Part shown: in pieces, positions 16,517 to 59,232 of the stretch
Layout: each line of letters begins with the position of its first letter
How positions within the stretch are numbered: position 1 is the stretch's first letter
NCBI GenBank assembly: GCA_017881075.1
Contig: JADGRH010000006.1
Coordinates: 117,666-181,665 of the forward strand
DNA from: Minisyncoccota bacterium
GTDB taxonomy: Bacteria; Patescibacteriota; Minisyncoccia; Phycocordibacterales; CAJBRS01
DNA: 64,000 nt
Reading direction: 5' to 3'
Made by a program: the position numbers and the translations under genes
The notes under the pieces: model-generated
The model's database searches: none
The model's input: the letters and a program-made list of their open reading frames with translations, nothing else
Told to the model about the DNA's origin: nothing

Positions 16517-17461
16517 TTGTGCGACATGACTCTTCAAGAATTAAAACGTCAATATCTGGAACACATTGAGATAGAAAAGGGGCGGAGTTTAAATACGGTG
16601 CGGAATTATGAGCACTACCTGGATCGATTTTTGGAATTTTCAAAAGCGAAGAGTCCGAGTGATATTACAGACGAGGTTCTTCGCGAATATCGCCTGTGGT
16701 TGAATCGTCAAAGCGCCGGAGCGAAGAATATCAAAGAGACCGACACTCTAAAGAAGCGCACCCAAAATTATTATCTCATCGCTCTCCGGTCTTTCTTGAA
16801 ATACCTGGCCAAAAGAAAGATCACTTCCCTCTCACCGGAAACAATTGAGCTCGCCAAGGTACCCGAACGCTCGCTCGATCTCATTTCTGGTGATGATCTC
16901 AAACGATTACTCAAGGCCCCAGAGAAAGAAAAGAATGAGCTGAAAAAACTAAGAGATAGAGCCATTTTAGAGCTATTTTTCTCTACCGGTCTTCGTGTCT
17001 CCGAGCTCTGTTCTCTCTCGCGGGACCTCGATATGGGCAAGGATGAGTTCTCTATTCGAGGAAAAGGCGAGAAAGTAAGAGTAGTTTTCTTATCTGATGA
17101 AGCAAAAGCGGCAGTGAAAAAATATTTAGCCAAGAGAGTAGACGTGCAAGACGCCATGTTTGTTCAGCTGCAAAGTCCTATCGGAAAAAGTAAAGAAGCT
17201 AAAGAACTCAATCGTCTCACTCCCCGCTCTATTGAAAGAATCGTCAAAAATTACGCTATCAAGGCCGGTATTTCTAAAAAAGTAACCCCTCACGTTCTTC
17301 GTCACAGCTTTGCCACCGATCTTCTGGAAAACGGCGCCGACCTCCGATCCGTTCAGATGCTTCTCGGCCACGCCAATATCACCACTACCCAGATCTACAC
17401 CCACGTGACCGACAAACATCTGAAAGATATCCATAAAAATTTTCATAACAAGAGAAAATAA
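16517..17461 (+). CDS. xerC: tyrosine site-specific recombinase XerC/XerD family
   Basis: C-terminus HVLRHSFATDLLENGADLRSVQMLLGHANITTTQIYTHV. Confidence 0.85.
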   Translation: MCDMTLQELKRQYLEHIEIEKGRSLNTVRNYEHYLDRFLEFSKAKSPSDITDEVLREYRLWLNRQSAGAKNIKETDTLKKRTQNYYLIALRSFLKYLAKRKITSLSPETIELAKVPERSLDLISGDDLKRLLKAPEKEKNELKKLRDRAILELFFSTGLRVSELCSLSRDLDMGKDEFSIRGKGEKVRVVFLSDEAKAAVKKYLAKRVDVQDAMFVQLQSPIGKSKEAKELNRLTPRSIERIVKNYAIKAGISKKVTPHVLRHSFATDLLENGADLRSVQMLLGHANITTTQIYTHVTDKHLKDIHKNFHNKRK

Positions 17462-22757: not shown

Positions 22758-24134
22758 ATGAACGAGAAGTATTCGGAAGCGATCGAGAATTACAAAAAAG
22801 ATCCCTCGCTTTTCTTATCGCATTCGTTGGTGGAAAATGATGAATTGCTTGCCTCTTTTGGCATCTCCATTCCGAACAAAAGTGCCCTACCGGAAGTTTT
22901 TTTGAAATTATATCCCCAAGATTTCATGGTGGAAGAGGTTCTGAAGAACGGGGAAGTCTGTACTGCCGAGTTTAAACCACTAGAGATGCTTAGCACTTCC
23001 GGAAAATCTTTTCATGTCACGTTGGTGAAATGCAATATCGGTACCTTGGAAGCGGCTGAGGAAATTGCCAAACAACTTGCTGTTCCGGTAAACTCTGTCG
23101 GCTACGCCGGCCTGAAAGACAACGACGCCATTACTTCACAGAGAATTTCTTTGACCAGTATTGCAGCGGAAAAGATTTCCGGCATCAGACATCCGTCTTT
23201 CTTTCTGAAGGACATTGAAGAAAACGGATTGATAATAAAAAAGGGCGAATTAAAAGGGAATCGATTCACCATTTTGCTTAGAACCAGAGGGAATGATCCG
23301 GCAGGAAAGAAGGCTTTATTGGACAGCTTAAAATTGATTCAGGAAAATGGATTTTATAATTTTTACTATCTCCAGCGGTTCGGGGCGCCTCGTTTGTTGA
23401 ATCATTACTGCGGGTTTCTGGTACTGCAGGGAAATTACAAAGAAGCCGTCCTTGCCGCTCTTTGTCAAAAAGGGAAAACGGACTTGAATCACATCAATAA
23501 AATCAGAGAAGAAGCCTCGGCCCATTTTGGAGAGTGGAAATATCTTCACGATCTTTTTCTTCCTCATGGAAAAGATCTCTATTATGAAATTCGGCTGGTA
23601 GAGCACCTCGCGAAGCATCCGGAAGATTTTGAAGGAGCTCTTCGCAATGTCCCAGACCTTGTCACCATCTGGGTTTACGCCTCTTCTTCTTGGCTATTCA
23701 ATAATAGACTGTCATCACTGATCAAGAGTTCAAATAACAAAATTCCAAAAACCCTTCCTTTGTTTTTAAGTAGTGATCAATCCAATTGGGAAAGTTATCG
23801 GTCTCTGCTTTCCAAACTTCTGGCCTACCCGCCCAACTTTGGAAATATTTTGAAGGTTTTGCCAGGGCTCGGGCTATGGTCGCGATACGTCAACACCAAA
23901 GCTAAATTTATTTTAAACGGAACTGAGACGATCGATGAGGGGATAGTTCTCTCTTTTACTCTGGGTAGGGGAGAATACGCCACAACTTTATTGGCTCATG
24001 TATGCAACATGATCTCTTATGCTCCTCCGCAGGACATCAGCTTCAATCCGGTAGATAGTATCTCATCCAATGGAAATCCTTTAAAAGAGACCTTTGAGGG
24101 CTTCGCCGAGGCCAAAAAGCCAGTCTTTGCTTGA
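22758..24134 (+). CDS. truD: tRNA pseudouridine synthase TruD/Pus7 family
   Basis: GYAGLKDNDAITSQ (catalytic Asp motif) and FYYLQRFGAPR. Confidence 0.7.
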   Translation: MNEKYSEAIENYKKDPSLFLSHSLVENDELLASFGISIPNKSALPEVFLKLYPQDFMVEEVLKNGEVCTAEFKPLEMLSTSGKSFHVTLVKCNIGTLEAAEEIAKQLAVPVNSVGYAGLKDNDAITSQRISLTSIAAEKISGIRHPSFFLKDIEENGLIIKKGELKGNRFTILLRTRGNDPAGKKALLDSLKLIQENGFYNFYYLQRFGAPRLLNHYCGFLVLQGNYKEAVLAALCQKGKTDLNHINKIREEASAHFGEWKYLHDLFLPHGKDLYYEIRLVEHLAKHPEDFEGALRNVPDLVTIWVYASSSWLFNNRLSSLIKSSNNKIPKTLPLFLSSDQSNWESYRSLLSKLLAYPPNFGNILKVLPGLGLWSRYVNTKAKFILNGTETIDEGIVLSFTLGRGEYATTLLAHVCNMISYAPPQDISFNPVDSISSNGNPLKETFEGFAEAKKPVFA

Positions 24135-24158
24135 CTTTTTCCTTGAATATGGTATACT
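24131..24158 (+). promoter_or_regulatory. near-consensus sigma70-type promoter TTGACT-N16-TGgTATACT (extended -10) overlapping the truD stop
   Basis: Read from the sequence. It drives the GC-rich gene downstream. Confidence 0.55.
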
Positions 24159-24370
24159 AGCGGGCAGAACTCCTAATAGGTTTGTTGAAGAAATTTCTCT
24201 GTATCTTGGCCACTAGCGGCTGAGAGCAGGGGTTCCGGACGGCGCTTCTGTGCCGTCAAATTGCTCCCCGCACTGTGTGCGGTACGACAATGGATATAAC
24301 GAGGGCGGAATAATTCCGTACAACAAAAATTCCTCTAAAATTTCAGAGAATTGATTTAGGACTGAACAAG

Positions 24371-25387
24371 ATGGTAAAACCAAATAGAAATCACAGGCAA
24401 GGCGGTGTTTTCGGAATGCTGATGGCGCGAGTCATCATCACCACCGACCGTATCGCGGGTAACAACTACACCGCGATCGGCGTCGTTCCAACGGAAATCG
24501 TGGACGGCGACACTCATCTCGGCGAACATCGTGACGAGATTATCGGTCAGGACCTTCAGCCCCACCACAGACTGCGTAATGCCGTCGTCGTGGTCGAGCC
24601 AAAAGGCAATCGGTTCGTTCCTCTACTTTCAAAGGATCTGACCGGTAACGACCCTCTCCCCGGAGTCGGGGAAGAGATCATGATGTTGTTCCGGGTCAAT
24701 AGTCCCGAAGGCGATAACCGCAGCATCGTTGAGCGGGCATTTGCCCTGTCGTGGTCGACGGTCGAGGCTTACAGTCGAGGCGGCGAAGAAGCGGCGAAGA
24801 AAAACGAGGACCTGCCCGAGCTCAAGAACGAGATCGATGTCGAATACCGCAGTCTCTGGCGGATGACGTCGGAGTCGGCGCGGATCACCATCGGATGGAT
24901 GACCCCGCAGAAGCTTGCGGACAAGCTGCACTTCCTCAATCGCGGCCTGGTGCCAGCGGACGCCAAGTGGTTCCGTCGGGACCCCGAGATCGGCAAGCAG
25001 CTGGTCGAAGCCGATGAGGACACCCGGAAGGCGATCATCCAACAGATGCAGACCGGCGTGGAATCGAGCGCGCGGCCGAAGGCGCTGACCATGATGCGGA
25101 CGGGCGTCGTCCAAAAGCAGGAACGCCGTTCTCAGCCGAAGCAGCGCACCGAGCGCCTCGGCCCAGTCGAGAAGGAGATCCTGGCAGAGCATCGGAGTGA
25201 TGGGCAACCTCACTCGAGCCTCATCCAGTTCCCTGCGACTGCAGAGCCGAGCGCAACGGCCAAGCGCCCCGCGCCAAAGGCCAAAGCCCCGCGCAAAGGC
25301 GACGGCAAGAAAAGCAAGAAGCGCGACCCTCGGCGCCGTTCGGATCAACGGATCGACGGTGACGAAGATGCGGCGATGATCGCCTAA
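24371..25387 (+). CDS. hypothetical protein encoded in a ~60% GC island, with a basic AKP-rich C-terminal tail
   Basis: AGGA RBS 8 nt upstream. GC3-rich codon usage unlike its neighbours. C-terminus KRPAPKAKAPRKGDGKKSKKRD. Confidence 0.5.
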   Translation: MVKPNRNHRQGGVFGMLMARVIITTDRIAGNNYTAIGVVPTEIVDGDTHLGEHRDEIIGQDLQPHHRLRNAVVVVEPKGNRFVPLLSKDLTGNDPLPGVGEEIMMLFRVNSPEGDNRSIVERAFALSWSTVEAYSRGGEEAAKKNEDLPELKNEIDVEYRSLWRMTSESARITIGWMTPQKLADKLHFLNRGLVPADAKWFRRDPEIGKQLVEADEDTRKAIIQQMQTGVESSARPKALTMMRTGVVQKQERRSQPKQRTERLGPVEKEILAEHRSDGQPHSSLIQFPATAEPSATAKRPAPKAKAPRKGDGKKSKKRDPRRRSDQRIDGDEDAAMIA

Positions 25388-25426
25388 ATAAGAAAAGTCC
25401 ACAGAGGTTCGAATCCAATGTGGCGA

Positions 25427-25460
25427 GCGGTTGAGTTTACGAACTCAGCCGCTTTTTTTT
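25427..25460 (+). terminator. rho-independent terminator GCGGTTGAGTT-tacg-AACTCAGCCGC-T8
   Basis: 11-bp stem with one G-U pair, followed by a T8 tract. Confidence 0.85.
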
Positions 25461-25477
25461 GTTATAATTTTAGGGCA

Positions 25478-25774
25478 ATGTCAAAGAAATTCATAAAAAA
25501 TGTAGAAGATTTTTTCTGCGATCACTGCGGAGAAGTTGTGAAAGGTAATGGTTATACCAATCATTGCCCGAAGTGTCTTTGGAGTAAGCATGTGGATGTG
25601 GATCCGGGGGATAGGGCTAGCGAATGTGGGGGAATGATGGAGCCGATTAGGATTGAAGAGAAGGGCGGGGAGCACTCTATTGTTCATAAGTGTATTAAAT
25701 GTGGTGCGGAGAAGAAGAATAAGATGGCGGTGGGGGATGATTTTGAGAAAGTTATCGATATAACAGGAAATTAA
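25478..25774 (+). CDS. RNHCP-domain zinc-ribbon protein
   Basis: CDHCGE...TNHCPKCLWSKHVD...CGGM...CIKCG. TATAAT lies 9 nt upstream of the ATG, so the mRNA is leaderless. Confidence 0.6.
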   Translation: MSKKFIKNVEDFFCDHCGEVVKGNGYTNHCPKCLWSKHVDVDPGDRASECGGMMEPIRIEEKGGEHSIVHKCIKCGAEKKNKMAVGDDFEKVIDITGN

Positions 25775-25784
25775 TCTCAATTGT

Positions 25785-25885
25785 CTGGTGTGGCCCGCAT
25801 CCTTTCCGTTCGTTTTTCTCCGCAGACTCCGAAGAAACGACCGTAAACTCTGCGGGAACAGCCTGGACCATTGGGTATTGCACAG
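25785..25885 (+). repeat. copy A of a ~105-nt GC-rich intergenic repeat family (shared termini CCTGGTCCCCCGCATCC ... CGGGAACAGCCTGGAC-TTGG-ATTGCA)
   Basis: Aligned by eye with copies at 32845-32947 and 34270-34378. Confidence 0.75.
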
Positions 25886-26085
25886 TTCTCATGTAGTGGT
25901 GCGGCTACTCTAGGTTCTAATTGATAAGCGAAAACCACCAGCATTTTCTTTAATGAGGAAACTGTTTGACGAGTTTACGAATTGCCTGCCGAAGGAGACA
26001 ACGGCTTCGACTCGACTGGAGGCGGTGCAATCGTTAACGAGGAGTTTTCCGAGTTAAAGAAAATGCTGGGGGTTGGAGCGAGAAG

Positions 26086-34447: not shown

Positions 34448-35569
34448 ATGAAAAAAACTTCTTATCTTTTAGTCATTCTTCTCTCATTTGTGGTCTTTTC
34501 TGTAGTGGTTGCTACTACCACTACCCTTTATAATGTAAAGGGTTATTCATGGTCTTCTAATGTCGGTTGGGTAAAGGCTGATCCTACTAACGGAGGAGTT
34601 TTTATGAGTAACGACGGTACTCTTTCGGGTTATGCTTGGGCAAATCCTTACGATAGTCGTGACGGTAGCAAAAATCTTGGTTGGCTAAGTTTTAAAGCGT
34701 CCGACATTTCTGGCTGTCCTTCTGGTCCTGGTACTTGTCCTGCCACGGTAACCTCAACGACCACCAACAGCACCGTTACCGGCTGGGCTCGTTTTATAGC
34801 ACATGATGTTTTACCTAACACATATTATACCGGATGGGTCCATCTTAGCGGCACAGCTACTAACGGCTCTCCTTACGGCGTTACATATGATGCATCGGCT
34901 AAAACTCTTAATGGATATGCTTGGGGCGGTAATGTAGTAGGTTGGATTCATATAAGTTTCAGTATAGAGGGTACCTGTGAACTCGCTACTGCCCCAGCAG
35001 CGCCTACCGGCCTTCAGGCTTCGGCGGCCAGTTGCAACGAAGTGGATCTATCATGGATCGCACCACCCGCTACTAATCCTCCAGTATCAGGTTACTATAT
35101 TTATAGAAATGGCCAGTTAGTATTTAGTAGCATTTCACCTTCTGCTATAGACACCACTGTCATCCCAGGACAAAATTATAGTTATCGAGTCTCCGCCTAT
35201 ATCGGTGGCGCTTGTCAGTTCGTTGAAGGGGGACAAAGCTCTTTAGTGAACGTTAACACTCCGAATAGTTGCAATACCGGCCAACCGGCCCTGTCATTAA
35301 AATGTTTCCCAACCAATGTTATCAAAGGAGCATCAGCAACTCTTAACTGGACAGCTTCTTCCGGTGGTTCTTGCACTATCACCGGCACGGATCCTAAATT
35401 TTCGCCGGTAACTTTCTCTGTTGATGATAAAGGAGGCAGTGGATCTGTTCCGACAGGACCAATCACTCAAACTCGTGATTACAATATGACTTGTACTGGA
35501 GCAAAGGGCGCGGAAAGTGTCAGCACCAAGGGTACCTGCTACGTATCGGCTGAATATCAACATTTTTAA
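34448..35569 (+). CDS. secreted protein with fibronectin type III-like domain
   Basis: Signal peptide. PTGLQASAASCNEVDLSWIAPP...YYIYRNGQ...YSYRVSAY. Confidence 0.6.
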   Translation: MKKTSYLLVILLSFVVFSVVVATTTTLYNVKGYSWSSNVGWVKADPTNGGVFMSNDGTLSGYAWANPYDSRDGSKNLGWLSFKASDISGCPSGPGTCPATVTSTTTNSTVTGWARFIAHDVLPNTYYTGWVHLSGTATNGSPYGVTYDASAKTLNGYAWGGNVVGWIHISFSIEGTCELATAPAAPTGLQASAASCNEVDLSWIAPPATNPPVSGYYIYRNGQLVFSSISPSAIDTTVIPGQNYSYRVSAYIGGACQFVEGGQSSLVNVNTPNSCNTGQPALSLKCFPTNVIKGASATLNWTASSGGSCTITGTDPKFSPVTFSVDDKGGSGSVPTGPITQTRDYNMTCTGAKGAESVSTKGTCYVSAEYQHF

Positions 35570-35575
35570 ACCATC

Positions 35576-35884
35576 ATGAACGAAGATAATTCATTTTTTT
35601 TAAGATATAAAACAAGTATTCTAATCATAATAGTGGCTATCTTTGTAGTGGCGGGGATCCTGCTATGGATGGGCACATTGAAAAATATCATTCCCATAAA
35701 TCAAAAACAATCAGGAAACACTCTTACAGAGGAGCAAATTCAGGCTATAATAAAAGATCGGCCGATAGGACCGGGAACTCTGACCACCAAACAAAGGAGC
35801 GCTATTTTAAACGATAAGCCGACAGGGACATCAACTCTTAGTGCAGAACAAAGAAATCAAATTTTAAACGATAAACCAAAATAA
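35576..35884 (+). CDS. small membrane protein with tandem ILNDKP(T/K) repeats
   Basis: N-terminal TM helix. Repeated SAILNDKPTG / NQILNDKPK. Confidence 0.5.
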   Translation: MNEDNSFFLRYKTSILIIIVAIFVVAGILLWMGTLKNIIPINQKQSGNTLTEEQIQAIIKDRPIGPGTLTTKQRSAILNDKPTGTSTLSAEQRNQILNDKPK

Positions 35885-35904
35885 TTAATCATTAAAAAAT
35901 TAAT

Positions 35905-36519
35905 ATGAAAAATCTAAGCAAAAAATTATTAGGTCCGGTTCAGGTGGTGATTCTGGCAATACTATTCAGTGTTGGTGGCAGTTATCTCTATGCCGCCGTT
36001 TCGGGGTGGTCAGAACCGGGATGTGCCGCGCCAGGTTGTAATGCCACCGCTCCTCTAAATATTTCTACTGACCCGCAAATTAAAGATGGTCCATTATATG
36101 TAGGTAATGTTCCAATGCAGAGTGGCATTGGTTTTCAAGTAGTAAATGGTAATGTTGCAATTGGTAACATTACGCCAACAAATAAGCTAACTGTCGCCGG
36201 AGATATTGGTGCTACTGCTTTCTATTACAGTTCTGACAGAAGTTTGAAGACAAATATTACTCCACTCCAAGATTCTCTGTCAAAAATAACCGAACTCCAA
36301 GGTGTATCTTTTAATTGGAAAAACGGCGGAGCGAAAAGTGATGGATTGATTGCTCAAGATGTGGAAAAAGTTTATCCAGAGTTGGTAAATACTGATCCAA
36401 AGACTGGATTAAAATCATTAGAATATGCCAATCTTGTGGCTCCACTGATTGAGGCAATTAAAACACAACAGAAAGAAATTGATGATCTAAAAGTCCAGAT
36501 TAAAGCATTGCAGAAATAA
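35905..36519 (+). CDS. membrane-anchored Gly-rich protein with C-terminal Peptidase_S74 / tail-fibre intramolecular chaperone (CIMCD) domain
   Basis: SDRSLKTNITPL...GLIAQDVEKVYPELV...LVAPLIEAIKTQQKEIDDLK matches the endosialidase chaperone domain consensus. Confidence 0.75.
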   Translation: MKNLSKKLLGPVQVVILAILFSVGGSYLYAAVSGWSEPGCAAPGCNATAPLNISTDPQIKDGPLYVGNVPMQSGIGFQVVNGNVAIGNITPTNKLTVAGDIGATAFYYSSDRSLKTNITPLQDSLSKITELQGVSFNWKNGGAKSDGLIAQDVEKVYPELVNTDPKTGLKSLEYANLVAPLIEAIKTQQKEIDDLKVQIKALQK

Positions 36520-36552
36520 ATAGTTCGATGATTCTCACTATAAAAAACTAAA

Positions 36553-37560
36553 ATGAAATTTACTTTTTTCTCAAAAGTAAAAAAATGGAAGTCTGTTTAC
36601 GCCATTATTGGTGTGATTAGTTTATTTATATTGATAGGCGTGGCATATGCGGCAACCCAGATCCGTTGTAACGGGAATCCAACCAATATGAGCGGTCACT
36701 TATGGGATTGTTATAGAGTGAACAACGGTCAAACAGTCCGAGTAGGAGATCCGAATAGTCCGATAGCTGAATGGAATCACTGCCAAGATGTAACTTACAA
36801 TCCCAATCCAGTACCTCCAAATGTGGCTGGTATTTTTATTCCAACAGACAAAGCGGACCAATGGCAGAGACTATGGGATCCCACTTCTCGTAGCAATCCC
36901 TTACCGAATGGCTTGTCTCTGGCGAATTGTCCCAACCAGCCTCCATCAACCAACTACACTCTCACTGTCACAACATCTGGAACAGGCTCGGGTACTGTCA
37001 CGAGCAACGTAGGAAATATCAATTGCGGATCAATTTGTTCTCAACAATTCCCGAGTGGAACGGCTGTAACCTTAACTGCTAGTCCGTCGGCAGGTTCTAC
37101 CTTCACTGGCTGGAGTCTGGTAGGATGTCCTAACACAGGAACATGCCCCGTCACTTTAAACAGCGACATTACAGTCAATGCCACCTTCACTCTCACAGGA
37201 GGAACATGTTCGACTTATGAAGCCGTTGGATCCTCGGGAGCGATAGATGGTGCTGGAGGAGGGTCCGGGCCGCCATGTAATGATGGCCCAGCAAATGGAA
37301 GCCTTACTTGTGCAAGATTTCTTGCAAAGGGAGAAGTAGATACATGGGTGGGACCTTCATCTGACGAAAAAACTCTTGCATATGGGGCCATTGATAGTGT
37401 CATTTGGGGACTAGTTAACCCACCCCCGGGTAGTGTGTACAAAAATGGTACTGATCGTAACGGATATGCATGGGACACCGAAGCCGACTATGAGACTTCA
37501 AACGAAAAGGGTTCCAGATACGGCTATTTCCTGCACATATCAAAAGATATTTGTCTTTAA
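36553..37560 (+). CDS. secreted protein with divergent InlB B-repeat-like domain
   Basis: Signal peptide. TLTVTTSGTGSGTVTS...GSICSQQFPSGTAVTLTASPSAGSTFTGWS. Confidence 0.55.
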   Translation: MKFTFFSKVKKWKSVYAIIGVISLFILIGVAYAATQIRCNGNPTNMSGHLWDCYRVNNGQTVRVGDPNSPIAEWNHCQDVTYNPNPVPPNVAGIFIPTDKADQWQRLWDPTSRSNPLPNGLSLANCPNQPPSTNYTLTVTTSGTGSGTVTSNVGNINCGSICSQQFPSGTAVTLTASPSAGSTFTGWSLVGCPNTGTCPVTLNSDITVNATFTLTGGTCSTYEAVGSSGAIDGAGGGSGPPCNDGPANGSLTCARFLAKGEVDTWVGPSSDEKTLAYGAIDSVIWGLVNPPPGSVYKNGTDRNGYAWDTEADYETSNEKGSRYGYFLHISKDICL

Positions 37561-37593
37561 GAGTGAGATTGAGGTCTATGTTATAATTTCCGT

Positions 37594-39342
37594 GTGTATA
37601 TAAACGAAAAGCAGTTAAAGGAGTTCATTCTCGACTCTGGCTTAGTCACCCGGAAGGATTTTGATTCTTCAGAAAAAGAAGCGGAGGGAAAAAAGACCAG
37701 CATCGGGGAAATCCTAGTAAATAAAGGCAAGCTGAACGAAGATGATCTTCGTCGTATTCAGGCCTATGTCTTGGGAATCCCCTTTGTGGATCTGAAAGAT
37801 CAAAAAATTGATTTTCAAGTGCTCTCACTCATTCCAGAACCGATCGCCAGAAATCATAACATCGTCCCATTCAAGCAGTCGGGCGGTAACTTAGAAGTAG
37901 CTATGCTCGACACGGACGATTTGAGTGCCATTGAATTTGTTAAAAAGAAAGTAGATTTACGTATTCTCCCGCGTCTTACCAACACCGATTCCATGAAAGC
38001 CGTTCTTCTGCAGTATCAGAAATCTCTGAAGGCTGACTTCGGAGATATCATTCAAAAAGAAGCTACCATTCTTAAAAATTTAGCCGAAGGAGGGGATGGG
38101 GCGAGCGAGAGTGATCTAAAAAAACTAGCCGAAGATTTACCGGTAATCAGAATTGTGGATACTCTTTTAAAGCATGCCATCTTGCAGGATGCTTCCGATA
38201 TTCATATTGAGCCGCAAGAAACAGAGGTGTTGGTGCGCTATCGTATTGATGGCCTTCTTCATGATGCCATGGTCTTGCCGAAAAACGCCGGAGCGAGTAT
38301 TACAGCCAGAATCAAGGTTCTTTCAAGCTTAAAATTGGACGAAAAACGTCTACCGCAGGACGGCCGATTCAAGATTGATATGAATAGTGAAAAGGTTTCT
38401 TTTCGTGTCTCCATCTTGCCTACATATTATGGCGAGAAGACGGTGATGCGACTTCTGCGAGAAAACGTTTCCGGGTTCACCCTGGAAGGTCTTGGTTTCC
38501 ATGGTCCGGCTTTGGAGCTTGTTCATGAAGGAACTAGGCTGGCAAATGGCTTGATTCTCACTACTGGTCCTACCGGCTCGGGCAAAACCACCACCCTTTA
38601 TACCATTCTGGATATTTTAAATACTCCGGATGTTAATATTTCCACCGTCGAGGATCCGGTAGAGTATCAGATGAAAAGAATAAATCAAAGTCAGGTGAAG
38701 CCGGACATAGGCTTCACCTTTTCTTCCGGGCTCCGTTCATTAGTGCGTCAGGATCCGGATATTATTATGGTCGGAGAGATCCGTGATAATGAGACGGCTT
38801 CACTGGCTATTAATGCCGCCTTGACGGGCCACTTAGTGCTTTCTACTTTGCATACGAACTCGGCCGCCGGCGCCATCCCACGTCTTCTTGATATGAAAGT
38901 TGAACCATTCCTATTGGTTTCCACATTAAATATCGTTATTGCCCAACGTCTGATTCGTCGCTTGACTGCGAGCAAGGAAAAATATTTCCTGACCAAGGCC
39001 GAAGTCGTCAGTCTTTCAAAAACCATTAACCTTGATCGTGTTCTGAAGTCTCTAAAAGAAGAGAAGATCGTCGAGCCTGGAGCGACATGGGAAAAGATTC
39101 CGTTTTATAAGCCAAAAGCCTCAGCCGAATCGGAAGATGGCTACAAGAGTCGGTTGGGCATTCATGAAGTTCTGCGGGTAAGCCCGACTATTAAGGATCT
39201 TATTATTCGTGGCGCCACTTCGGCCGCGGTTGAAGAGCAAGCCAAAAAGGAGGGAATGCTGACCATGATTGAAGATGGTATCTTTCAATGTGTTCAAGGG
39301 GTGACCACTATTGAAGAGGTACTTAGAGTGGTGTCGGAGTGA
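37594..39342 (+). CDS. pilB: type IV pilus assembly ATPase PilB/GspE family (GTG start)
   Basis: N-terminal GSPII_E_N domain. Walker A GPTGSGKTTTLY. Asp and His boxes. Confidence 0.9.
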   Translation: MYINEKQLKEFILDSGLVTRKDFDSSEKEAEGKKTSIGEILVNKGKLNEDDLRRIQAYVLGIPFVDLKDQKIDFQVLSLIPEPIARNHNIVPFKQSGGNLEVAMLDTDDLSAIEFVKKKVDLRILPRLTNTDSMKAVLLQYQKSLKADFGDIIQKEATILKNLAEGGDGASESDLKKLAEDLPVIRIVDTLLKHAILQDASDIHIEPQETEVLVRYRIDGLLHDAMVLPKNAGASITARIKVLSSLKLDEKRLPQDGRFKIDMNSEKVSFRVSILPTYYGEKTVMRLLRENVSGFTLEGLGFHGPALELVHEGTRLANGLILTTGPTGSGKTTTLYTILDILNTPDVNISTVEDPVEYQMKRINQSQVKPDIGFTFSSGLRSLVRQDPDIIMVGEIRDNETASLAINAALTGHLVLSTLHTNSAAGAIPRLLDMKVEPFLLVSTLNIVIAQRLIRRLTASKEKYFLTKAEVVSLSKTINLDRVLKSLKEEKIVEPGATWEKIPFYKPKASAESEDGYKSRLGIHEVLRVSPTIKDLIIRGATSAAVEEQAKKEGMLTMIEDGIFQCVQGVTTIEEVLRVVSE

Positions 39343-39354
39343 TAGAATGATCTT

Positions 39355-40569
39355 ATGAAATTCAAATACAGCGCCACAAACAGCCAAGGAGAAACTCATG
39401 AGGGGATCAAAGATGCGCCTGATAAATTTACTTTCTACCGCAATTTAAAAAAAGACGGCGAAACAATCGTTTGGGTGAAAGAAGTAAGAGGAGGAGGACT
39501 TTCCTCTATTAATTTCAGCTTTGGTCTTTTTGGTCGGATCAAGATGCACGACAAGATCGTCTTTGCCAGAAATCTCGGAGGAATGATTGAGGCCGGGCTG
39601 TCCTTATCGCGAGGGTTGTCTGTTCTTGAGAGACAAACCAAGAACAAGAAGTTAAAAGCGACCTATAAATCGCTGAATGATTCCATTGCCGCCGGCAAAA
39701 CTTTTCATGATGCTATGGCGGAATTCCCAAACGTTTTTAACACCCTTTTTATTTCCATGGTCAAGGCAGGGGAGGAAGGAGGTAATCTTGCCGGCTCCCT
39801 AAAGCAGATCGCTTCGCAGACGGAAAAAACTTACCTGCTTCAGAAAAAAATTAAGGGGGCAATGATCTACCCAGCCGTTATTGTTTCAGTGATGATTTTG
39901 ATTGGGGTTTTAATGATGATCTTTGTGGTGCCGAGCCTGACCGCCACTTTTAAGGAATTGAATGCCCCACTCCCAGGTAGCACTCTTTTCATTATTGCCA
40001 TCAGTGATTTTCTGGCAAAAAATTATATTTTATCGGCTCTGATACTCATTATCTTGGTCGTCGGTATCTACTTAGTAGCCAAGACTAAAAAAGGCAAGAG
40101 ATTCCTTGATTATGTCATCTTACATATTCCGATTGTTGCGCCACTGGTTAAAGAAACTAATGCCGCTCGCACCACCAGAACTTTATCAGCCCTTCTTCGC
40201 TCCGGTGTTGATTTAATTCTGGCCGCTCAAATTACCGGCGAAGTTCTTCAAAATTCTTATTACAAGGAGGTTTTGAAGGAGGTGGAAGTGAAAGTGACCA
40301 AGGGCGATCCTATTTCCGGGTTGTTTTTAGAAAAAGAAAAACTTTATCCGGTTTTCGTTGGCGAGATGATTAGTGTCGGCGAAGAGACCGGCCAGCTTTC
40401 CGAAATGCTTGTCGGGGTAGCTGATTTTTATGAAGAAGAGGTGGAACAAAAAACCAAGGATATGTCTACAATTATTGAACCATTTTTAATGGTCTTTATT
40501 GGTTTAGTAGTCGGTTTCTTTGCTGTTTCTATGATCACCCCTCTTTATACCGTAATGAATAATATATAA
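39355..40569 (+). CDS. pilC: type IV pilus inner-membrane platform protein PilC/GspF
   Basis: Two GspF repeats and three TM segments. Confidence 0.85.
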   Translation: MKFKYSATNSQGETHEGIKDAPDKFTFYRNLKKDGETIVWVKEVRGGGLSSINFSFGLFGRIKMHDKIVFARNLGGMIEAGLSLSRGLSVLERQTKNKKLKATYKSLNDSIAAGKTFHDAMAEFPNVFNTLFISMVKAGEEGGNLAGSLKQIASQTEKTYLLQKKIKGAMIYPAVIVSVMILIGVLMMIFVVPSLTATFKELNAPLPGSTLFIIAISDFLAKNYILSALILIILVVGIYLVAKTKKGKRFLDYVILHIPIVAPLVKETNAARTTRTLSALLRSGVDLILAAQITGEVLQNSYYKEVLKEVEVKVTKGDPISGLFLEKEKLYPVFVGEMISVGEETGQLSEMLVGVADFYEEEVEQKTKDMSTIIEPFLMVFIGLVVGFFAVSMITPLYTVMNNI

Positions 40570-40580
40570 GAGCAGAGCTT

Positions 40581-42359
40581 ATGCTAAGAGCTATTCGTGG
40601 ATTCACTCTAATTGAGACTCTGGTCAGTATTGCCATCTTTGTTATTTTAGTGATGGTTGTATCCCAAACTAGTTTTACTATCGTTCGACAAGCGAGAGCC
40701 TATCGAGAAAACACTACGGTCTCGGGATTGGCAGATCAATATATAGAAATCGCCAGAAATTTACCTTATTCTCAAATAGGCACTTTGAGCGGTAATCCTC
40801 ATGGTAATCTTCCCGATCAACCAAATGCCACCAACGTTACATTTAATCTCAATACTTATCAAATTTACTATGTTGTAAATTACATAGATGATCCTGCAGA
40901 TGGAACAATCCTGGCTGGTACGGATCCCACCCCAAATGATTATAAACAGCTTAAATTGTATATAAAAAACACCGCTACCGGATTCACCAGCACTTTCTTA
41001 AGCAATATTTCACCCAAAGGTCTTGAAAATTTGAGTAGCGGCGGAGCCCTCAACATTAAAGTCTTTGACGCTGTTGGACAGCCAATTCCTAACGCCACCA
41101 TCAATATTACCAACACCTCCTTAACTCCAAATATTAATTTGACTCGGACAAGTGATGCTAACGGTAATTGGACTGAAGTGGGATTGCCGGATAGTGCCAA
41201 TAGTTATCACCTAGTGGTGACAAAAAACGGTTATTCGACCGACCGCACTTATGCCATAAGCGGCCAAAATCCCAACCCGACTAAACCGGATGGTACCATT
41301 TCAAATGGGCAGGTTACTCAGATTAGTTTCTCCATTGATCAATTAAGTAATCTACTATTCAATACTCTAGATCAGACCTGCAGTGCCATATCGGCAGTTG
41401 GTCTTCAGGTGCGTGGTTCGAAATTGATCGGCACGCCGAGTGTAGTGAAATTTGATAATTCCTATACATCAAATGGTGCCGGTCAGGTGTCGCTGAATAA
41501 TATTGAGTGGGATAATTACACTCCGGCCCTTAGCACTATAAGCTACATGATCTATGGTTCTTCTCCCATTCAGCAGATTAGTTTACTTCCCAACACTACA
41601 CAACAGTTTACTTTAATCCTTGGTCCGCACACCAGCAACAGTTTATTAGTCATTGTTAAAGACGCCTCGACTGGTAATCCGATCGAAGGAGCTAGTGTTC
41701 TATTAAACAAGGGAAATTCTCCCATAAATACTAAACTAACAGGAGGTAGTATATGGGCTCAGCAAGACTGGTCGGGAGGATCGGGACAAACTACTTTCAG
41801 TGATATGACTAAGTATGATCAAGATGATGGCAATATCAACACCACAGATACACCAACAGCTCTTCGTTTAAGGCACTCCGGATTATCTTACGCTTCCTCG
41901 GGGTTTTTGGTTTCTTCAACATTTGATACCGGGACGGCTTCAAGTTCTTACACTACTCTAAATTGGCAGCCTACTTCTCAAGATCCAACCACTCTTCTTA
42001 AATTCCAAATTGCCACTAGCAATAGCACCTCAACTTGGAATTTCCTAGGACCTGACGGTACGGTTAATACTTATTATAGTGTTCCGGGGACTACGATTAA
42101 CAGCTCTAATAATGGTAATCGTTTTGTCCGATATAAAGTCTATCTCTCTACAACAAATAGCTCCAAGACTCCGGTGTTGACTAGTCTTAGTCTTAATTAT
42201 GTTCCTGGTTGTTTTACCCCTGGGCAAGTAATGTTTCCCGGCCTTCAAACTGGTTCAGATTATGGAGTAGGGGTAAGTATGTCAGGATTTCAAACGGAAA
42301 CTATCAATAACTTGAATATTAACGGTTATAATGTATTAAATGTATTACTCGGCCATTAA
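40581..42359 (+). CDS. large prepilin-type (class III signal) pilin-like protein
   Basis: N-terminus RGFTLIETLVSIAIFVIL with the G/FTLIE cleavage motif. 592 aa. Confidence 0.75.
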   Translation: MLRAIRGFTLIETLVSIAIFVILVMVVSQTSFTIVRQARAYRENTTVSGLADQYIEIARNLPYSQIGTLSGNPHGNLPDQPNATNVTFNLNTYQIYYVVNYIDDPADGTILAGTDPTPNDYKQLKLYIKNTATGFTSTFLSNISPKGLENLSSGGALNIKVFDAVGQPIPNATINITNTSLTPNINLTRTSDANGNWTEVGLPDSANSYHLVVTKNGYSTDRTYAISGQNPNPTKPDGTISNGQVTQISFSIDQLSNLLFNTLDQTCSAISAVGLQVRGSKLIGTPSVVKFDNSYTSNGAGQVSLNNIEWDNYTPALSTISYMIYGSSPIQQISLLPNTTQQFTLILGPHTSNSLLVIVKDASTGNPIEGASVLLNKGNSPINTKLTGGSIWAQQDWSGGSGQTTFSDMTKYDQDDGNINTTDTPTALRLRHSGLSYASSGFLVSSTFDTGTASSSYTTLNWQPTSQDPTTLLKFQIATSNSTSTWNFLGPDGTVNTYYSVPGTTINSSNNGNRFVRYKVYLSTTNSSKTPVLTSLSLNYVPGCFTPGQVMFPGLQTGSDYGVGVSMSGFQTETINNLNINGYNVLNVLLGH

Positions 42360-42972
42360 AAACTCTAAACATACAGCATTTACTCTAATAGAGACTCTGG
42401 TATCAATATCCATCTTTACTATTCTGATGTTGGGTATCGGAGTTCTATTTAAAGGGGTTTACTCTAATTCAAATCAACAAAAGATATCAATAGACAATAC
42501 TGACCAAGCCAGAATAATTATATTCAACTTTGCCAATGAGTTAAGAAATGTTACTCTCGGAAACGACGGATCTTATCCTTTAAACCAGGCCGGCGATTCG
42601 CAGGTTATTCTATTTACAAGTTATGGCGCAACGGGTTCAAACGTCAATAGAGTTAGATACTATAGTTCCAGTACTAAATTATATAAAGGTATCGTCACTC
42701 CATCGGGCAATCCATTAACTTACAACCTCGCTTCTGAAGTGAACACTCCAATCCTGAATGGTCTTAGCGGCACCTCATCCATATTTTTTTATTACGATGG
42801 TAATTATAGCGGTACTAGCACCCCGCTTAGCCAACCGGTCAACCTCACCCAAGTGAAGTTTATTAAAATGAATTTAATTGTTCTTAAACAAGATGTCACT
42901 AATGCCACAGGCACCTTTTCAATCGCCGCCGGAGCAACCCTCCGAAATCTAAAAACTAATTTGGGTAATTAA
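42340..42972 (+). CDS. type IV pilin-like protein
   Basis: N-terminus KHTAFTLIETLVSISIFTIL. Confidence 0.7.
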   Translation: MYYSAIKNSKHTAFTLIETLVSISIFTILMLGIGVLFKGVYSNSNQQKISIDNTDQARIIIFNFANELRNVTLGNDGSYPLNQAGDSQVILFTSYGATGSNVNRVRYYSSSTKLYKGIVTPSGNPLTYNLASEVNTPILNGLSGTSSIFFYYDGNYSGTSTPLSQPVNLTQVKFIKMNLIVLKQDVTNATGTFSIAAGATLRNLKTNLGN

Positions 42973-42977
42973 TAGAG

Positions 42978-44369
42978 ATGAAAAGACCCGCACTTAAAAA
43001 AAATGGTGATACCTTAGTCTTACTTTTGATCATCGTCTTTCTTTTTACCGTCATGATGTTGCCAATCATTAATATCTTGATCCTAAAATCAAGAGTACTA
43101 AACTCTACCGTTAATAAAGAGAAGGCCTATCAAGTGGCAGAAGCAGGTATAAATTATTATCAATGGCATTTGGCTCACTACCCGGCAGATTATCAGGATG
43201 GCACTAACCACGGCGGTCCATACGTTCATAATTATACTGATTTTGATACAGAGAAAACTGTTGGACAGTACAGTCTTACTATCACACCCCCGGACGTCGG
43301 ATCAACCATTGTAACTATTCAATCAAAAGGTTTGACTACGGATAATCCGAATGTGACCAGAACCATAACTGCTCGTTACGGCATTCCTTCGCTTGCCCAA
43401 TATTCTTTTTTAAGCAATGACGTCATCTGGATCGGCAGCGACGAAACAGTCAGTGGGGAATTGCAATCAAATAACGGAGTACGATTTGATGGTGTCGGCA
43501 ATGCTCCTATCCAATCAGCTAAATCGACCTATACTTGTCCAAGTACCCAAGGAAGTCCGTGCCCGACTACCGAGAATGGGGTATGGGGAAGTGCAACACA
43601 GGCAGTTAAAAATTTTTGGCAATTTCCTGTGCCGGCGGTAGACTTTTCAACCCTAACATCCAATCTGGCCTCTCTTAAAAGTCTGGCGCAAGCTTCCGGC
43701 GGGATCTATCTTCCTCCCTCGAATGCCCAAGGTTATTCATTGGTTTTCAATAACGACAGCACCATAAGCATATATAAAGTCACTAGTCGTCTTTCAAATC
43801 CGACCGGCTGGGATGTTAATTCTAATCCTCATAATGAATATACCGATTACAACACTAGAACCTTGCTCTATAGCAAGGCCATGCCGACAAACGGCATTGT
43901 CTATATAGAAGACAATACCTGGGTTGAAGGCACTGTGAGGGGAAGAGTAATGGTCGCCGCCGCTCAATTACCATATAATCCTTCTACTGCACCGACGATC
44001 TATCTTCCCAAGAATATTGTCTATTCGGCCAAAGACGGAACAAATGTTCTAGGCTTACTCTCGCAGAAAGATCTTATCGTTACTTATCACGCTCCCAATA
44101 TTTTAGAGATTGATGCTGCTTTAATCAGTCAAAATGGTAGTGTCCAATTTTTATATTATCCGAATGATATAAAAACCAGTATTACTGTCTTTGGCTCGAT
44201 CATGACATTTGGGCAATGGACCTGGACCTGGGTTGATGGTTCCAATAATGTTGTGTCAGGGTATGCGACAACAAATGATACTTATGACGGCAATTTACTT
44301 TACGGTCCTCCTCCCAGTTTCCCAATATCAACATCAGGCTATCAACCCTTGAGTTTTACCAGTAATTAA
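42978..44369 (+). CDS. PilX_N-like minor pilin / pilus-associated protein
   Basis: N-terminal TM helix, then KEKAYQVAEAGINYYQWHL, resembling PilX_N. Confidence 0.5.
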   Translation: MKRPALKKNGDTLVLLLIIVFLFTVMMLPIINILILKSRVLNSTVNKEKAYQVAEAGINYYQWHLAHYPADYQDGTNHGGPYVHNYTDFDTEKTVGQYSLTITPPDVGSTIVTIQSKGLTTDNPNVTRTITARYGIPSLAQYSFLSNDVIWIGSDETVSGELQSNNGVRFDGVGNAPIQSAKSTYTCPSTQGSPCPTTENGVWGSATQAVKNFWQFPVPAVDFSTLTSNLASLKSLAQASGGIYLPPSNAQGYSLVFNNDSTISIYKVTSRLSNPTGWDVNSNPHNEYTDYNTRTLLYSKAMPTNGIVYIEDNTWVEGTVRGRVMVAAAQLPYNPSTAPTIYLPKNIVYSAKDGTNVLGLLSQKDLIVTYHAPNILEIDAALISQNGSVQFLYYPNDIKTSITVFGSIMTFGQWTWTWVDGSNNVVSGYATTNDTYDGNLLYGPPPSFPISTSGYQPLSFTSN

Positions 44370-44376
44370 AATATTT

Positions 44377-44715
44377 ATGAAATTAATGAAAATTTTAATT
44401 CTTCTATTCTTCGGTTTCCAATTGATCTACGCCACGAGCGCAATGGCGGCGAAATTGGCCCCTTTTCCAAGTAGCGCATCATTACAGCCAATCCCTGTCT
44501 TTACCCATCCTAATGTTTCTGGCAATGTCAATCATACCGGTATTAAGAGTACTGATTATCAGAATACTAACGCACCAATAGTAAATAATTCAAACGCAAG
44601 TAATACAGAAACAGAAACTAAGAGCTCTTATGGTGTGTGGTTTTGGTTTTCCATCTGGCTCGCTATTCTCTCCTTATTTTTTGCTCTGGTTCTCACAATA
44701 AAAAGGAAAAAATAA
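44377..44715 (+). CDS. small secreted protein with C-terminal TM anchor + KRKK
   Basis: Signal peptide. C-terminus VWFWFSIWLAILSLFFALVLTIKRKK. Confidence 0.45.
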   Translation: MKLMKILILLFFGFQLIYATSAMAAKLAPFPSSASLQPIPVFTHPNVSGNVNHTGIKSTDYQNTNAPIVNNSNASNTETETKSSYGVWFWFSIWLAILSLFFALVLTIKRKK

Positions 44716-54935: not shown

Positions 54936-56339
54936 ATGAAGTTTTACGTTTTTGTCTGGAGTTTTTTTGGCGTTGTTTTTCTTGCCTCGGTTTTCCATTG
55001 GCCGCTTTGGCCGTTTCACAATCACGATCCCAATTTCTATTCTCACCTTAATGAAGTCGTAACCATTCGCGGAATTATAGTGGATGAGCCGGATCAAAGA
55101 GAAAACAATACCAATCTAATAATTCTACCGACAAAAATTAATGACAAGTCTTTTTCTACTAAAGAAAAATTAATTGCTCGAGCTCCATCATATTCCACTT
55201 TTCAATACGGAGATGAGGTTGAAGTAAGGGGGAAGTTGGAATTGCCGGAAATGATCGATTCGGATAATGGTCGTACTTTCAATTATCCCGAATATCTGGC
55301 AAAAGATAATATCTATTATTTGATAAATAGGGCGGAGGTCAAGGTAATTTCAAGCGGCCATGGAAATATCGTTAAAAGAAATCTTTTCAAAATCAAGCAT
55401 GCCTTTCTCTCTAATCTCAATGAATTATTACCTGAACCGCATTCCGGTTTCATGGGTGGCTTGATTATTGCCGGAAAGAAATCTTTGCCGGCCGATATTT
55501 TGGCCGAATTTCAGAGAACTGGAACACTGCAGATAGTTGTTCTCTCCGGCTACAACATTACTATTGTGGCCGAAGCAATGATGAAAATGTTTTCATTTTT
55601 ACCAAGCGCCGGCGGATTGATAGCCGGCGCTGGGAGCATCATTCTTTTTTCAATTATGGCGGGTGGCGCGTCTACGATAGTCCGCGCCGCCGTCATGGCC
55701 TTGATCTCCATTCTCGGTAAGGCTACTCACCGTGTTTATGATGCCAAACGAGCCCTCTTTATGGCCGGTTTTTTAATGGTACTTCAGAATCCAAAGATAT
55801 TGACCTATGACCCTTCATTTCAGCTTAGTTTTATGGCTACTTTGGGGTTAATGGTTCTCTCGCCATTCTTCGAGCAACGTCTATTATGGATTCCAGAAAA
55901 ATTCCAACTTAGGGCAATGGCTTCAGCAACTCTTGCCAGCCAAGTTTTCGTCACTCCGATTATTTTCTACCAGATCGGCCAGGTTTCTCTTGTTTCCGTG
56001 CCAACCAACATGCTAATGCTCATTCTTGTTCCAACAATAATGTTGATCGGTTTTATCACGGGGCTTGTGGGGTTTGTCAGCCACTTGGTCGCAATGCCTT
56101 TTGCCTTCATTTCGTATTTTTTACTTTCATACGAGCTTTTTGTGTTAAAATTTTTTGCCAATATTCCTTTTGCTTTGATCTCAATTCCATTTCCGTTCTG
56201 GGTGTTAGCCGGCGTTTACGGTTTTTATGTTTTTATCTTTTTTAAGAGGAGAAAAAATACCAGCCAAATAACAAAAGAAAGCGCCGCCGTAGGCGGCGCT
56301 TTCTCAAGAATTAAAGACATTAAGATCCTAGAGGACTAA
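54936..56339 (+). CDS. comEC: ComEC/Rec2 family DNA-uptake channel (DUF4131 + competence domain; no MBL domain)
   Basis: Multi-pass membrane protein. LQIVVLSGYNITIV. Confidence 0.8.
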   Translation: MKFYVFVWSFFGVVFLASVFHWPLWPFHNHDPNFYSHLNEVVTIRGIIVDEPDQRENNTNLIILPTKINDKSFSTKEKLIARAPSYSTFQYGDEVEVRGKLELPEMIDSDNGRTFNYPEYLAKDNIYYLINRAEVKVISSGHGNIVKRNLFKIKHAFLSNLNELLPEPHSGFMGGLIIAGKKSLPADILAEFQRTGTLQIVVLSGYNITIVAEAMMKMFSFLPSAGGLIAGAGSIILFSIMAGGASTIVRAAVMALISILGKATHRVYDAKRALFMAGFLMVLQNPKILTYDPSFQLSFMATLGLMVLSPFFEQRLLWIPEKFQLRAMASATLASQVFVTPIIFYQIGQVSLVSVPTNMLMLILVPTIMLIGFITGLVGFVSHLVAMPFAFISYFLLSYELFVLKFFANIPFALISIPFPFWVLAGVYGFYVFIFFKRRKNTSQITKESAAVGGAFSRIKDIKILED

Positions 56340-56935: not shown

Positions 56936-57002
56936 AGTTTTTATATTAAATTAATAATAATTTCATCTCACATGTTTATAATATCAGATTCTGTCTGATC
57001 TG

Positions 57003-57091
57003 GTGCCCACTCGCATGCCTCCGTTCGACGTTCTTTCGGAAACCTCAAGAAGTCGCCCAGAGTCAAGCTCGCAACACCTCGGCCTTTAAGT
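57003..57091 (+). repeat. left copy of ~85-bp inverted repeat (~95% identical to 59064-59148 rc)
   Basis: Aligned by eye; the central ~70 nt are identical. Confidence 0.85.
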
Positions 57092-57147
57092 GATAAATTA
57101 TGTATTAATCACTTCACCAACGCACTAATATTATAGACGTTTCAAAC

Positions 57148-58249: not shown

Positions 58250-58290
58250 AAGATTTTCATGCTACCATATTAAATATATATTTAGCAAAC

Positions 58291-58908: not shown

Positions 58909-59063
58909 TCAGCCTCCAGCCGCATTAGTATTTCTTGCCTGCGGTGCGACGCTCTGGAAAAGGCAATTCTAGCAGTACTTTCGCTATCCTCGGCAGCGAA
59001 ATACTAATGCGACTTCCGGCTTCCTTTCCACATCAGTGATAGTGATAGGTAATAAAAATGTAA

Positions 59064-59148: not shown

Positions 59149-59232
59149 CACGATCTGTATTTACAAGGTTGCATTTTCTGCTTCTCTGTATTACATTATT
59201 ACCTACGCCACGAGGCGCATTTTCATTAAGAA

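Follow-up and report, generated by a model that had tools for sequence, protein, structure and literature searches.

The 64-kb window analyzed here, a stretch of 64,000 nucleotides (nt) from contig JADGRH010000006.1 of an ultra-small Minisyncoccota bacterium, carries at 35905..36519 on the + strand a small gene for a tail-fiber-like protein, hereafter the S74 mini-fiber. ATG 35905 is the earliest start downstream of an in-frame stop in the list of open reading frames (ORFs), the stop codon lies at 36517-36519, and the product, by this list and a match to PF13884, is a secreted precursor of 204 amino acids (aa) that ends in a Peptidase_S74 domain. Along this + strand gene, four parts follow one another. 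An inferred Sec-type signal peptide (35905..36006; aa 1-34) has a basic n-region (K2/K6/K7), a core at aa 11-30 and the putative cleavage site V-S-G|W35. It is followed by a module typical of the candidate phyla radiation (CPR), termed the N-module (36007..36096; aa 35-64), with the pattern W35-x2-P38-x7-N46-x3-P50-x-N52-x5-Q58-x-K60-x-G62, and by a single stalk or capping-loop repeat (36097..36231; aa 65-109; family profile positions ~68-103) containing NGNVAIGNITPTNKLTVAGDIGA. The remainder (36232..36516; aa 110-204) is an S74 intramolecular chaperone/protease with a C-terminal coiled-coil helix (aa 175-203), whose release before Ser110 is predicted; it opens with the catalytic motif S110-D-R-S-L-K115 (36232..36249), in which Ser is the nucleophile and Lys the base. 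Since the GC content of the gene (0.393) is only slightly under that of the window (0.431), there is no sign of recent transfer, and profiles of the family and of the N-module run against all six-frame ORFs found no paralog in the window besides the gene itself.

The assignment of the C-terminal domain is secure, because the PF13884 match, the dyad, the family profile, Foldseek and PHROGs all agree. PF13884 (Peptidase_S74) matches aa 110-161 over profile positions 1-57 of 58, scoring 59.5 bits (curated cut-off 22 bits; E-value 4e-16). The SDxxxK Ser-Lys dyad has been defined for S74, and every S74 protein tested self-cleaves (PMC10769870). An alignment of 47 related sequences shows no substitution at S110, D111 or K115, and all 120 homologs listed retain [ST]DxxxK. 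Compared with solved chains, the family profile matches the phage S16 long-tail-fiber 6f45 (5e-13), the tail fiber 8jov (8e-10) and the ICA domain of MyRF, 7dc3 (9e-7). In PHROGs, aa 80-203 match the final ~100-145 positions, the extreme C-terminal ends, of 39 phage tail-fiber families; aa 1-79 have no PHROGs match. An AlphaFold2 monomer model predicts the C-terminal helix (aa 175-203) with a predicted local distance difference test (pLDDT) of 83-96, and its best Foldseek match is again the MyRF ICA domain 7dc3 (E 2e-4, probability 1.0, target-normalized template-modeling score 0.53-0.56), followed by the weaker endoNF CIMCD 3gw6 (E 0.03). The model thus lends moderate support to a fold shared with solved CIMCD/ICA domains; as its quality is only moderate, the N-terminal half is not interpreted. 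By sequence, dyad and fold, the mini-fiber belongs to Peptidase_S74 (PF13884, MEROPS S74). The original prediction had proposed an S74/CIMCD C-terminus and a search with PF13884 as its check; both are borne out, with the quoted motifs (SDRSLK at aa 110, GLIAQDVEKVYPELV and LVAPLIEAIK) all found and the dyad intact.

A separate observation concerns relatives from Gracilibacteria and Absconditabacterales (L031, L033, L039, L057, L073), in which a stop at the invariant Gly147 (…K.I*VIAQEVE…) splits the S74 ORF under translation table 11. These are intact genes rather than pseudogenes, since genetic code 25, in which UGA is Gly, predicts exactly this stop.

The mini-fiber is the minimal form of its family. 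A word-indexed search returned 212 homologs, those with names being 'tail fiber domain-containing protein' of Candidatus Parcubacteria, Paceibacterota or Taylorbacteria, and a genome scan found at least 466 relatives in species-representative genomes. In the 80 loci kept from that scan for repeat counts and contexts, proteins range from 187 to ~2,800 aa and carry 1-13 copies of the stalk repeat, whose consensus is GNVGIGT..P.YKL.V.G. Proteins in which the N-module and S74 flank these 1-13 repeats are 187 to ~940 aa long, and S74 relatives without the N-module reach ~2,800 aa. The mini-fiber has exactly one copy, which had been described as a Gly-rich repeat region. It (VAIGNITPTNKL) is close to the capping loop V-G-G/N-pi-x-x-P-x-x-x-L of mosaic adhesive trimer (MAT) fibers, and in a profile alignment the stalk repeat aligns with the MyRF ICA loop preceding the cleavage site. 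The capping-loop motif in Bdellovibrio MAT fibers and MyRF was found by Caulton et al. (PMC10769870).

Beyond this core, the closest S74 relatives come mainly from CPR bacteria, from metagenome-assembled genomes (MAGs) of DPANN archaea (Nanoarchaeota, Woesearchaeota, Pacearchaeota), and from Bdellovibrionota/Oligoflexia/Peredibacter together with Omnitrophota, a grouping that the search patterns and the taxonomy labels of MAGs have skewed and that serves as a lead only. Many of these groups are thought to live attached to, or to prey on, other cells. An identity as a trimeric autotransporter adhesin, the JGI name of the proteins P0013 and P0035, was considered and rejected: there are no YadA anchor, head or stalk domains, PF13884 is the only Pfam match, and the JGI label on these two proteins is probably an automatic mis-annotation.

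At the other end of the protein, the hydropathy maximum lies at aa 8-32. Among 213 family sequences, a conserved Trp stands at median position 27, preceded at -1 by Ala in 143 (67%) and with Val or Ala dominating at -3, a pattern that points to a signal-peptidase I site of the classical type directly before the Trp throughout the family. Because of these -3/-1 statistics, cleavage before Trp35 is judged more likely than membrane anchoring; the description 'membrane-anchored' in the original prediction is unproven, and the family favors a cleaved signal peptide. The N-module that follows is highly conserved, with W35, N46, P50, N52, Q58 and K60 invariant and P38 and G62 conserved in at least 90%; the invariant residues and the breadth of the N-module family described below point to selection on the mature part. 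No Pfam or NCBIfam model covers it, and NCBIfam gave sub-threshold noise only on the mini-fiber.

The N-module defines a family far larger than the S74 proteins. When 1.84 billion cluster representatives were searched with a profile limited to the signal peptide and N-module (A2; 61 positions), it matched 9,384 proteins (50%-identity clusters) with E<=1e-3, of which 3,860 reach E<=1e-10, and the match is N-terminal in 150 of the 150 hits listed. An S74 terminus is present in just 13 of the 115 new top matches that are at least 170 aa long; the other N-module proteins end in collagen triple helix, Gly-rich (Gly_rich_2), TSP1-like, PilV-like or unassigned Cys-rich domains. All those with source names are CPR (Nomurabacteria, Parcubacteria, Yonathbacteria, Curtissbacteria), and the annotation of the named ones goes no further than hypothetical, 'collagen' or 'PE-PGRS'. 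A model of the N-module could therefore annotate thousands of 'hypothetical' CPR surface proteins. Non-S74 N-module genes adjoin S74 ones in four loci (L016, L043, L050, L091).

Two N-module positions of the mini-fiber are replaced by Cys40 and Cys45 (36022-36039; WSEPGCAAPGCN). The same C-x4-C variant occurs in L055 (FTEPACAPTGCN) and in one further homolog (WVNPACGPTGCN), which suggests a recurrent, disulfide-stapled version of the module. In the relatives L002, L004 and L008, DsbA-like genes are found close to the S74 cassette.

The mini-fiber gene stands in a run of eleven same-strand genes from 34448 to 44715, with gaps of 6-33 nt around the cassette. Upstream on the + strand lie the 'up2' partner gene (34448..35569), for a secreted protein of 373 aa with N-terminal GYAWSxNxGWxxF repeats and fn3, and the gene for a small transmembrane protein (35576..35884; 102 aa) that has three tandem ~17-aa repeats of the type TL[ST]x[EK]Q…[IL]xD[KR]PxG and no family match. 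Downstream, likewise on the + strand, follow a gene for a secreted InlB-repeat protein (36553..37560; 335 aa; divergent InlB B-repeat, Flg_new_2), pilB (37594-39342; T2SSE+MshEN), pilC (39355-40569; T2SSF) and two type IV pilin genes with N_methyl (40581..42972; 40581-42359, 592 aa with CarboxypepD_reg, and 42340-42972, 210 aa). Pfam calls confirm the predicted run of secreted proteins directly upstream of pilB, pilC and pilins. No intergenic terminator-like site was found from 34448 to the pilins, the + strand terminator-like sites falling inside genes, and co-transcription of the cassette with pilB, pilC and the pilins is plausible.

The wider surroundings are those of an ordinary chromosome. 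The upstream flank holds UvrD, an M23/LysM peptidase, ComM, PNPase, CCA-adding enzyme, four tRNAs, TruD, RNase Y, ClpP, trigger factor, pyrophosphatase and NusA; the downstream flank holds, after pilB, pilC and the two pilins, TIM, PGK, RecJ, GMP synthase, RNase H, ComEC, SOD and EF-G. When the 46 main ORFs of the window were compared with Pfam, and 10 of them also with PHROGs, no capsid, terminase, portal or tail genes were found, and the unannotated neighbors gave nothing phage-like by PHROGs save an fn3 domain. The sole tyrosine recombinase (16517-17461) has a XerC/D-type architecture and lies 19 kb off, in housekeeping surroundings with no phage neighbors. Housekeeping context was likewise found at all nine relatives' loci inspected, and the idea of a prophage-encoded tail fiber was rejected on these Pfam and PHROGs comparisons. 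The claim that no prophage is present stands. The discovery of adjacent phage genes on a longer contig had been named as refuting the prediction; no such genes are adjacent, and a public contig with an identical protein (P0001) shows the same neighbors.

Two further features of the window were noted. Positions 54936-63188 are syntenic with a relative's locus, L011 (ComEC, SOD, MBL, M50, S12, S7, X, EF-G). Slot X holds a 247-aa family member and a 351-aa protein in L011 and an unrelated 253-aa transmembrane protein (60213-60974) in the window, and this slot within the str operon seems to vary in the surface-protein genes it carries. In addition, GC content reaches 0.526 at 24001-26000 against ~0.43 elsewhere in the window; neither Pfam nor PHROGs matches the ORFs 24371-25387 (338 aa) and 25418-25774, and no rRNA was detected in this stretch by Rfam.

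Comparison of loci shows how far this arrangement is kept. In close relatives, the cassette beside NusA is conserved and consists of a GYAW-repeat secreted protein, a protein of ~90-116 aa, the S74 protein and a further secreted protein. The up2 family, which has 3-5 GYAWSxNIGWISF repeats and no curated family, is the most constant neighbor of N-module S74 genes (for example, L026:497-1837, L055:6076-7464 and L056:6077-7330); its members adjoin the S74 gene in ~15 loci, including one with a different wider context (L010). The small upstream protein (35576-35884) shows no phmmer homology across loci, though a protein of ~90-116 aa holds the slot, and homologs of the InlB-repeat protein lie near S74 genes in L030 and L050. 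More broadly, the order GYAW-repeat protein, S74 fiber, pilB, pilC recurs across CPR lineages, with an S74-to-pilB gap of 0.6-4 kb in Paceibacteria, Saccharibacteria and unclassified Patescibacteria, and of only 0.6-3 kb at L021 and L055, at L026, and at L056 and L091, respectively, where the GYAW-repeat partner is usually directly upstream. Of 30 distinct N-module S74 loci, 12 have pilB on the same strand no more than 10 kb downstream, compared with 2 among 56 S74 loci of other kinds (Fisher p 3e-5); proximity to pilB is clearly enriched among N-module S74 loci.

Furthermore, some relatives join the two systems covalently. A protein of Oligoflexia (L079; 5284-6288) combines S74 with an N_methyl match of 28.8 bits, above the Pfam threshold, and one of Saccharibacteria (L049; 1701-3227) combines it with the N_methyl motif 'KAFSLIELL' at 20.1 bits against a cut-off of 21.2. 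In L070 (3474-7091) the prepilin motif DGFSLMELLVYTGIF was recognized by eye beside S74, and L048:9032-10375 also unites a prepilin N-terminus, tail-fiber repeats and S74. These pilin-S74 fusions are spread over MAGs of Oligoflexia, Saccharibacteria, Paceibacterota and Bdellovibrionaceae, and the architecture was not found in the searchable literature. Two other family members (P0017, P0026) contain a PilV (Shufflon_N) constant-region segment above threshold. The mini-fiber itself was rejected as a pilin: it has no PF07963 match at E<=0.1 and no G|FxxxE, and its 'LLG|PVQVV' lacks Glu at +5, unlike the neighboring pilins in the window and L079 and L049, which do match N_methyl. Because it has neither a class III signal nor an N_methyl motif, it cannot itself polymerize into a pilus.

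PMT_2-type (protein O-mannosyl/ArnT-like) glycosyltransferase genes accompany the S74 cassette in several relatives' loci (L002:11464-12915; L004:11629-12774; L008:5609-6985 and 11144-12586; L010:12073-13590), which hints that these secreted proteins or the pili are glycosylated.

Taken together, we consider it moderately probable that the 204-aa protein is a minimal member of a CPR-specific, cell-encoded family of tail-fiber-like proteins and serves as a Sec-exported, self-processing trimeric stub of a surface- or pilus-associated host-contact apparatus. The gene probably works in an apparatus of this kind, encoded by CPR episymbionts alongside their type IV pili. The sequence statistics imply that the precursor would be exported by Sec and cut before Trp35 by signal peptidase I. 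As in the rest of the family, the S74 chaperone and its coiled coil would then align three chains and fold the single triple-beta-helix or capping-loop rung at aa 65-109. Trimerization by the C-terminal domain followed by self-cleavage is established for endoNF, T5 pb1, MyRF and Bd3182 (PMC10769870), and by homology the Ser110/Lys115 dyad is expected to cut Ser109|Ser110 and free a 95-aa chaperone. The cut is placed there because the mature form of Bd3182, a MAT fiber with a signal peptide, surface location and self-cleavage shown, ends at A781 with the catalytic Ser at 782 (PMC10769870). A trimeric stub of 75 aa per chain (W35-S109) would remain. Speculatively, its N-module (W35…G62) may attach to the envelope or to a pilus-associated partner, and the newly exposed C-terminal end may contact a ligand or partner protein.

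Several observations weigh against this reading, some of them in favor of particular alternatives. The mature product would be ~75 aa with one repeat and no obvious receptor-binding tip; the AlphaFold2 monomer has a mean pLDDT of 70, a predicted template-modeling score of 0.30 and values below 50 at aa 100-109; and scans for promoters and terminators carry little information in CPR, promoter-like sites in the window being no commoner than in shuffles. The small size of the stub, in a protein of which the S74 domain makes up nearly half, might suggest that the domain is kept as a permanent trimerization and coiled-coil module, the functional product being the full-length trimer or a C-terminal piece. 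This is quite improbable, however, as the invariant S110, D111 and K115 and the [ST]DxxxK motif conserved throughout the homologs would be unnecessary for a purely structural role, and self-cleavage is the rule among the S74 proteins tested (PMC10769870). The N-terminus offers more room for doubt. Its core of 20 residues is long enough to span a membrane, the model draws aa 9-34 as one continuous helix, and V-S-G|W35 is an uncommon variant of the family site, its Val and Gly at -3/-1 being in the minority among relatives (Gly at -1 in 5 of 213). The trimer could then be tethered to the cytoplasmic membrane by three transmembrane helices of an uncleaved signal anchor, as the original prediction had it. 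We regard this as unlikely, since the 213 relatives carry a canonical signal-peptidase I site before the Trp at a fixed distance from the start, and because so strongly conserved a module begins exactly at the predicted cut, a free N-terminus is suggested. As for the notion of a decaying prophage tail-fiber remnant, a C-terminal fragment with no cellular role, it could appeal to the match of aa 80-203 to phage tail-fiber C-termini and to the slightly low GC content of the gene; it is nevertheless extremely improbable and already largely refuted by the present evidence. The 64 kb hold no phage genes, the reading frame is unbroken and encodes a signal peptide as well as a conserved N-module of non-phage type, orthologs of 187-204 aa stand in conserved synteny beside NusA in several species, and thousands of related clusters exist, with the catalytic residues invariant.

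The strongest competitor concerns the pilus. Co-occurrence with type IV pilus genes, which had been proposed as a check across CPR genomes, does recur in several CPR lineages, but it is not universal. The link is lacking in over half of the family loci (for example, L010 and L011): L010 stands among housekeeping genes and L011/L012 between S7 and EF-G in the S12-S7-EF-G operon, with no type IV pilus genes within 8 kb. In L002, L004 and L013 the cassette lies 7.7-9.7 kb from pilB with other genes between, the ~8 kb in L002 and L004 including opposite-strand genes. With L010/L011 apart from pilus genes and L002/L004 ~8 kb from pilB, the link is not obligatory. The statistics also have their limits, as the loci are not phylogenetically independent of one another and contig ends truncate some of them; with the NusA-syntenic clade collapsed, 8 of 25 loci remain against a background of 6% that was assumed from an estimate rather than measured as a control (p 7e-5). 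It is accordingly conceivable, if rather unlikely, that the protein is a free-standing surface or secreted fiber encoded in a 'surface-protein island', its proximity to pilB reflecting clustering of envelope genes or shared synteny ancestry. The absence of a prepilin motif from the mini-fiber would fit such a fiber, as would the other C-termini of most N-module proteins. What speaks for a tie to the pilus instead is the recurrence of the order up2, S74 fiber, pilB, pilC at 0.6-4 kb, the enrichment of 12/30 over 2/56, and the existence of covalent pilin-S74 fusions.

A bolder version of the preferred host-contact reading, which we advance tentatively and think doubtful as a whole, would treat the N-module as a docking tag that loads mosaic trimeric tips onto a common CPR surface structure, being the type IV pilus or its tip complex for the pilB-linked subclass, so that episymbionts recognize hosts with exchangeable, phage-like, pilus-borne fibers. 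The tips would be the S74 fibers and the collagen, Gly-rich, TSP1-like and Cys-rich ends, and their loading might, speculatively, resemble the docking of PilY1 on minor pilins. In phages of the T2/S16 type, gp38 binds the processed gp37. By a similarly speculative analogy, the 204-aa protein may be a minimal adaptor whose freshly cleaved tip is bound by the neighboring GYAW/fn3 or InlB-repeat proteins.

The way in which CPR bacteria (Patescibacteria), a large share of bacterial diversity, find and hold their hosts is a central question for this group. So far, host contact in CPR has been tied only to type IV pili and a handful of minor pilins, in Saccharibacteria (PMC11623550). The locus points to a second contact layer, absent from the searchable literature and made of phage-tail-fiber-like, self-processing trimers with swapped C-terminal tips, often encoded just upstream of pilB/pilC, and the 204-aa protein and the natural pilin-S74 fusions are testable candidates for host-range determinants. 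The 'unusual non-phage use' of S74 that headed the original prediction was overstated. With the precedent of Bdellovibrio MAT fibers (PMC10769870), MyRF (7dc3), the NCBI tail-fiber names and at least 466 relatives, non-phage S74 is known and relatives are already auto-annotated, so that this headline is not novel in itself. In the searchable literature, no paper treats Peptidase_S74 or endosialidase together with Patescibacteria, candidate phyla radiation or pilin. By that measure the novelty lies in the N-module family, which is CPR-specific, and its extent, in the minimal architecture with one repeat, in the conserved order of GYAW-protein, S74 fiber and pilB, and in the pilin-S74 fusions.

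Among known systems, phage fibers with CIMCDs (endoNF/K1F 3GW6; T5 pb1 4UW8; S16 gp37 6F45) share with the mini-fiber the Pfam family, the catalytic motif, the C-terminal place of the domain, the end helix and a preceding beta-helix rung. The mini-fiber differs from them in having no adjacent phage genes or virion, a Sec signal, a non-phage N-module and a far shorter mature part. The ICA domain of eukaryotic MyRF (7DC3) is the best structural match, its pre-cleavage loop aligns, and it trimerizes and self-cleaves outside viruses; MyRF itself, however, has an unrelated biology, being a transcription factor of the endoplasmic reticulum membrane whose cleavage frees a DNA-binding trimer. Modular minor pilins and PilV shufflon adhesins (Streptococcus sanguinis PilB, PMC8179133; Saccharibacteria PilX1/PilX2, PMC11623550; PF04917) are encoded in or near type IV pilus operons and place adhesive modules at the pilus. 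Some relatives of the mini-fiber approach this design as pilin-S74 fusions (L079, L049) or by carrying a PilV segment, whereas the mini-fiber carries neither a class III (prepilin) signal nor N_methyl. In Saccharibacteria, host binding is driven by type IV pili whose minor pilins are modular and adhesive, and the authors propose further close-range surface adhesins (PMC11623550); the word 'tail' does not occur in their paper, and 'fiber' stands there for curli alone. The S74 fiber family is a candidate for these proposed adhesins.

The closest parallel is with the MAT fibers with which predatory Bdellovibrio grips its prey, 13 of whose 21 members are S74-terminated (PMC10769870). Both are cell-encoded and combine a signal peptide, a conserved N-terminal module, a V-G-x-G…P…L capping-loop stalk and a C-terminal S74 domain with SDxxxK; both families share an N-terminus among members with S74 and non-S74 tips; and both occur in bacteria that live by attachment to other cells. 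Nevertheless, the N-terminal domain of MATs is beta-rich and ~130 aa long, whereas here it is Pro/Asn-rich and ~30 aa long; MATs have ~1,000 aa, in contrast to the 204 aa and one repeat of the mini-fiber, which is known from sequence alone; Bdellovibrio is diderm and CPR envelopes differ; and MATs are not reported as linked to type IV pilus operons. Membership in the MAT family was considered and rejected, given that the ~130-aa beta-rich domain is lacking, and MAT-like proteins of Bdellovibrionales/Peredibacter (L076, L092) match the family profile only from positions ~26-52 onward, without W..P…N…P[IL]N. Homology of the two N-termini is unsupported. The architecture of putative signal peptide, repeat stalk and S74 tip is nevertheless analogous to that of MAT fibers.

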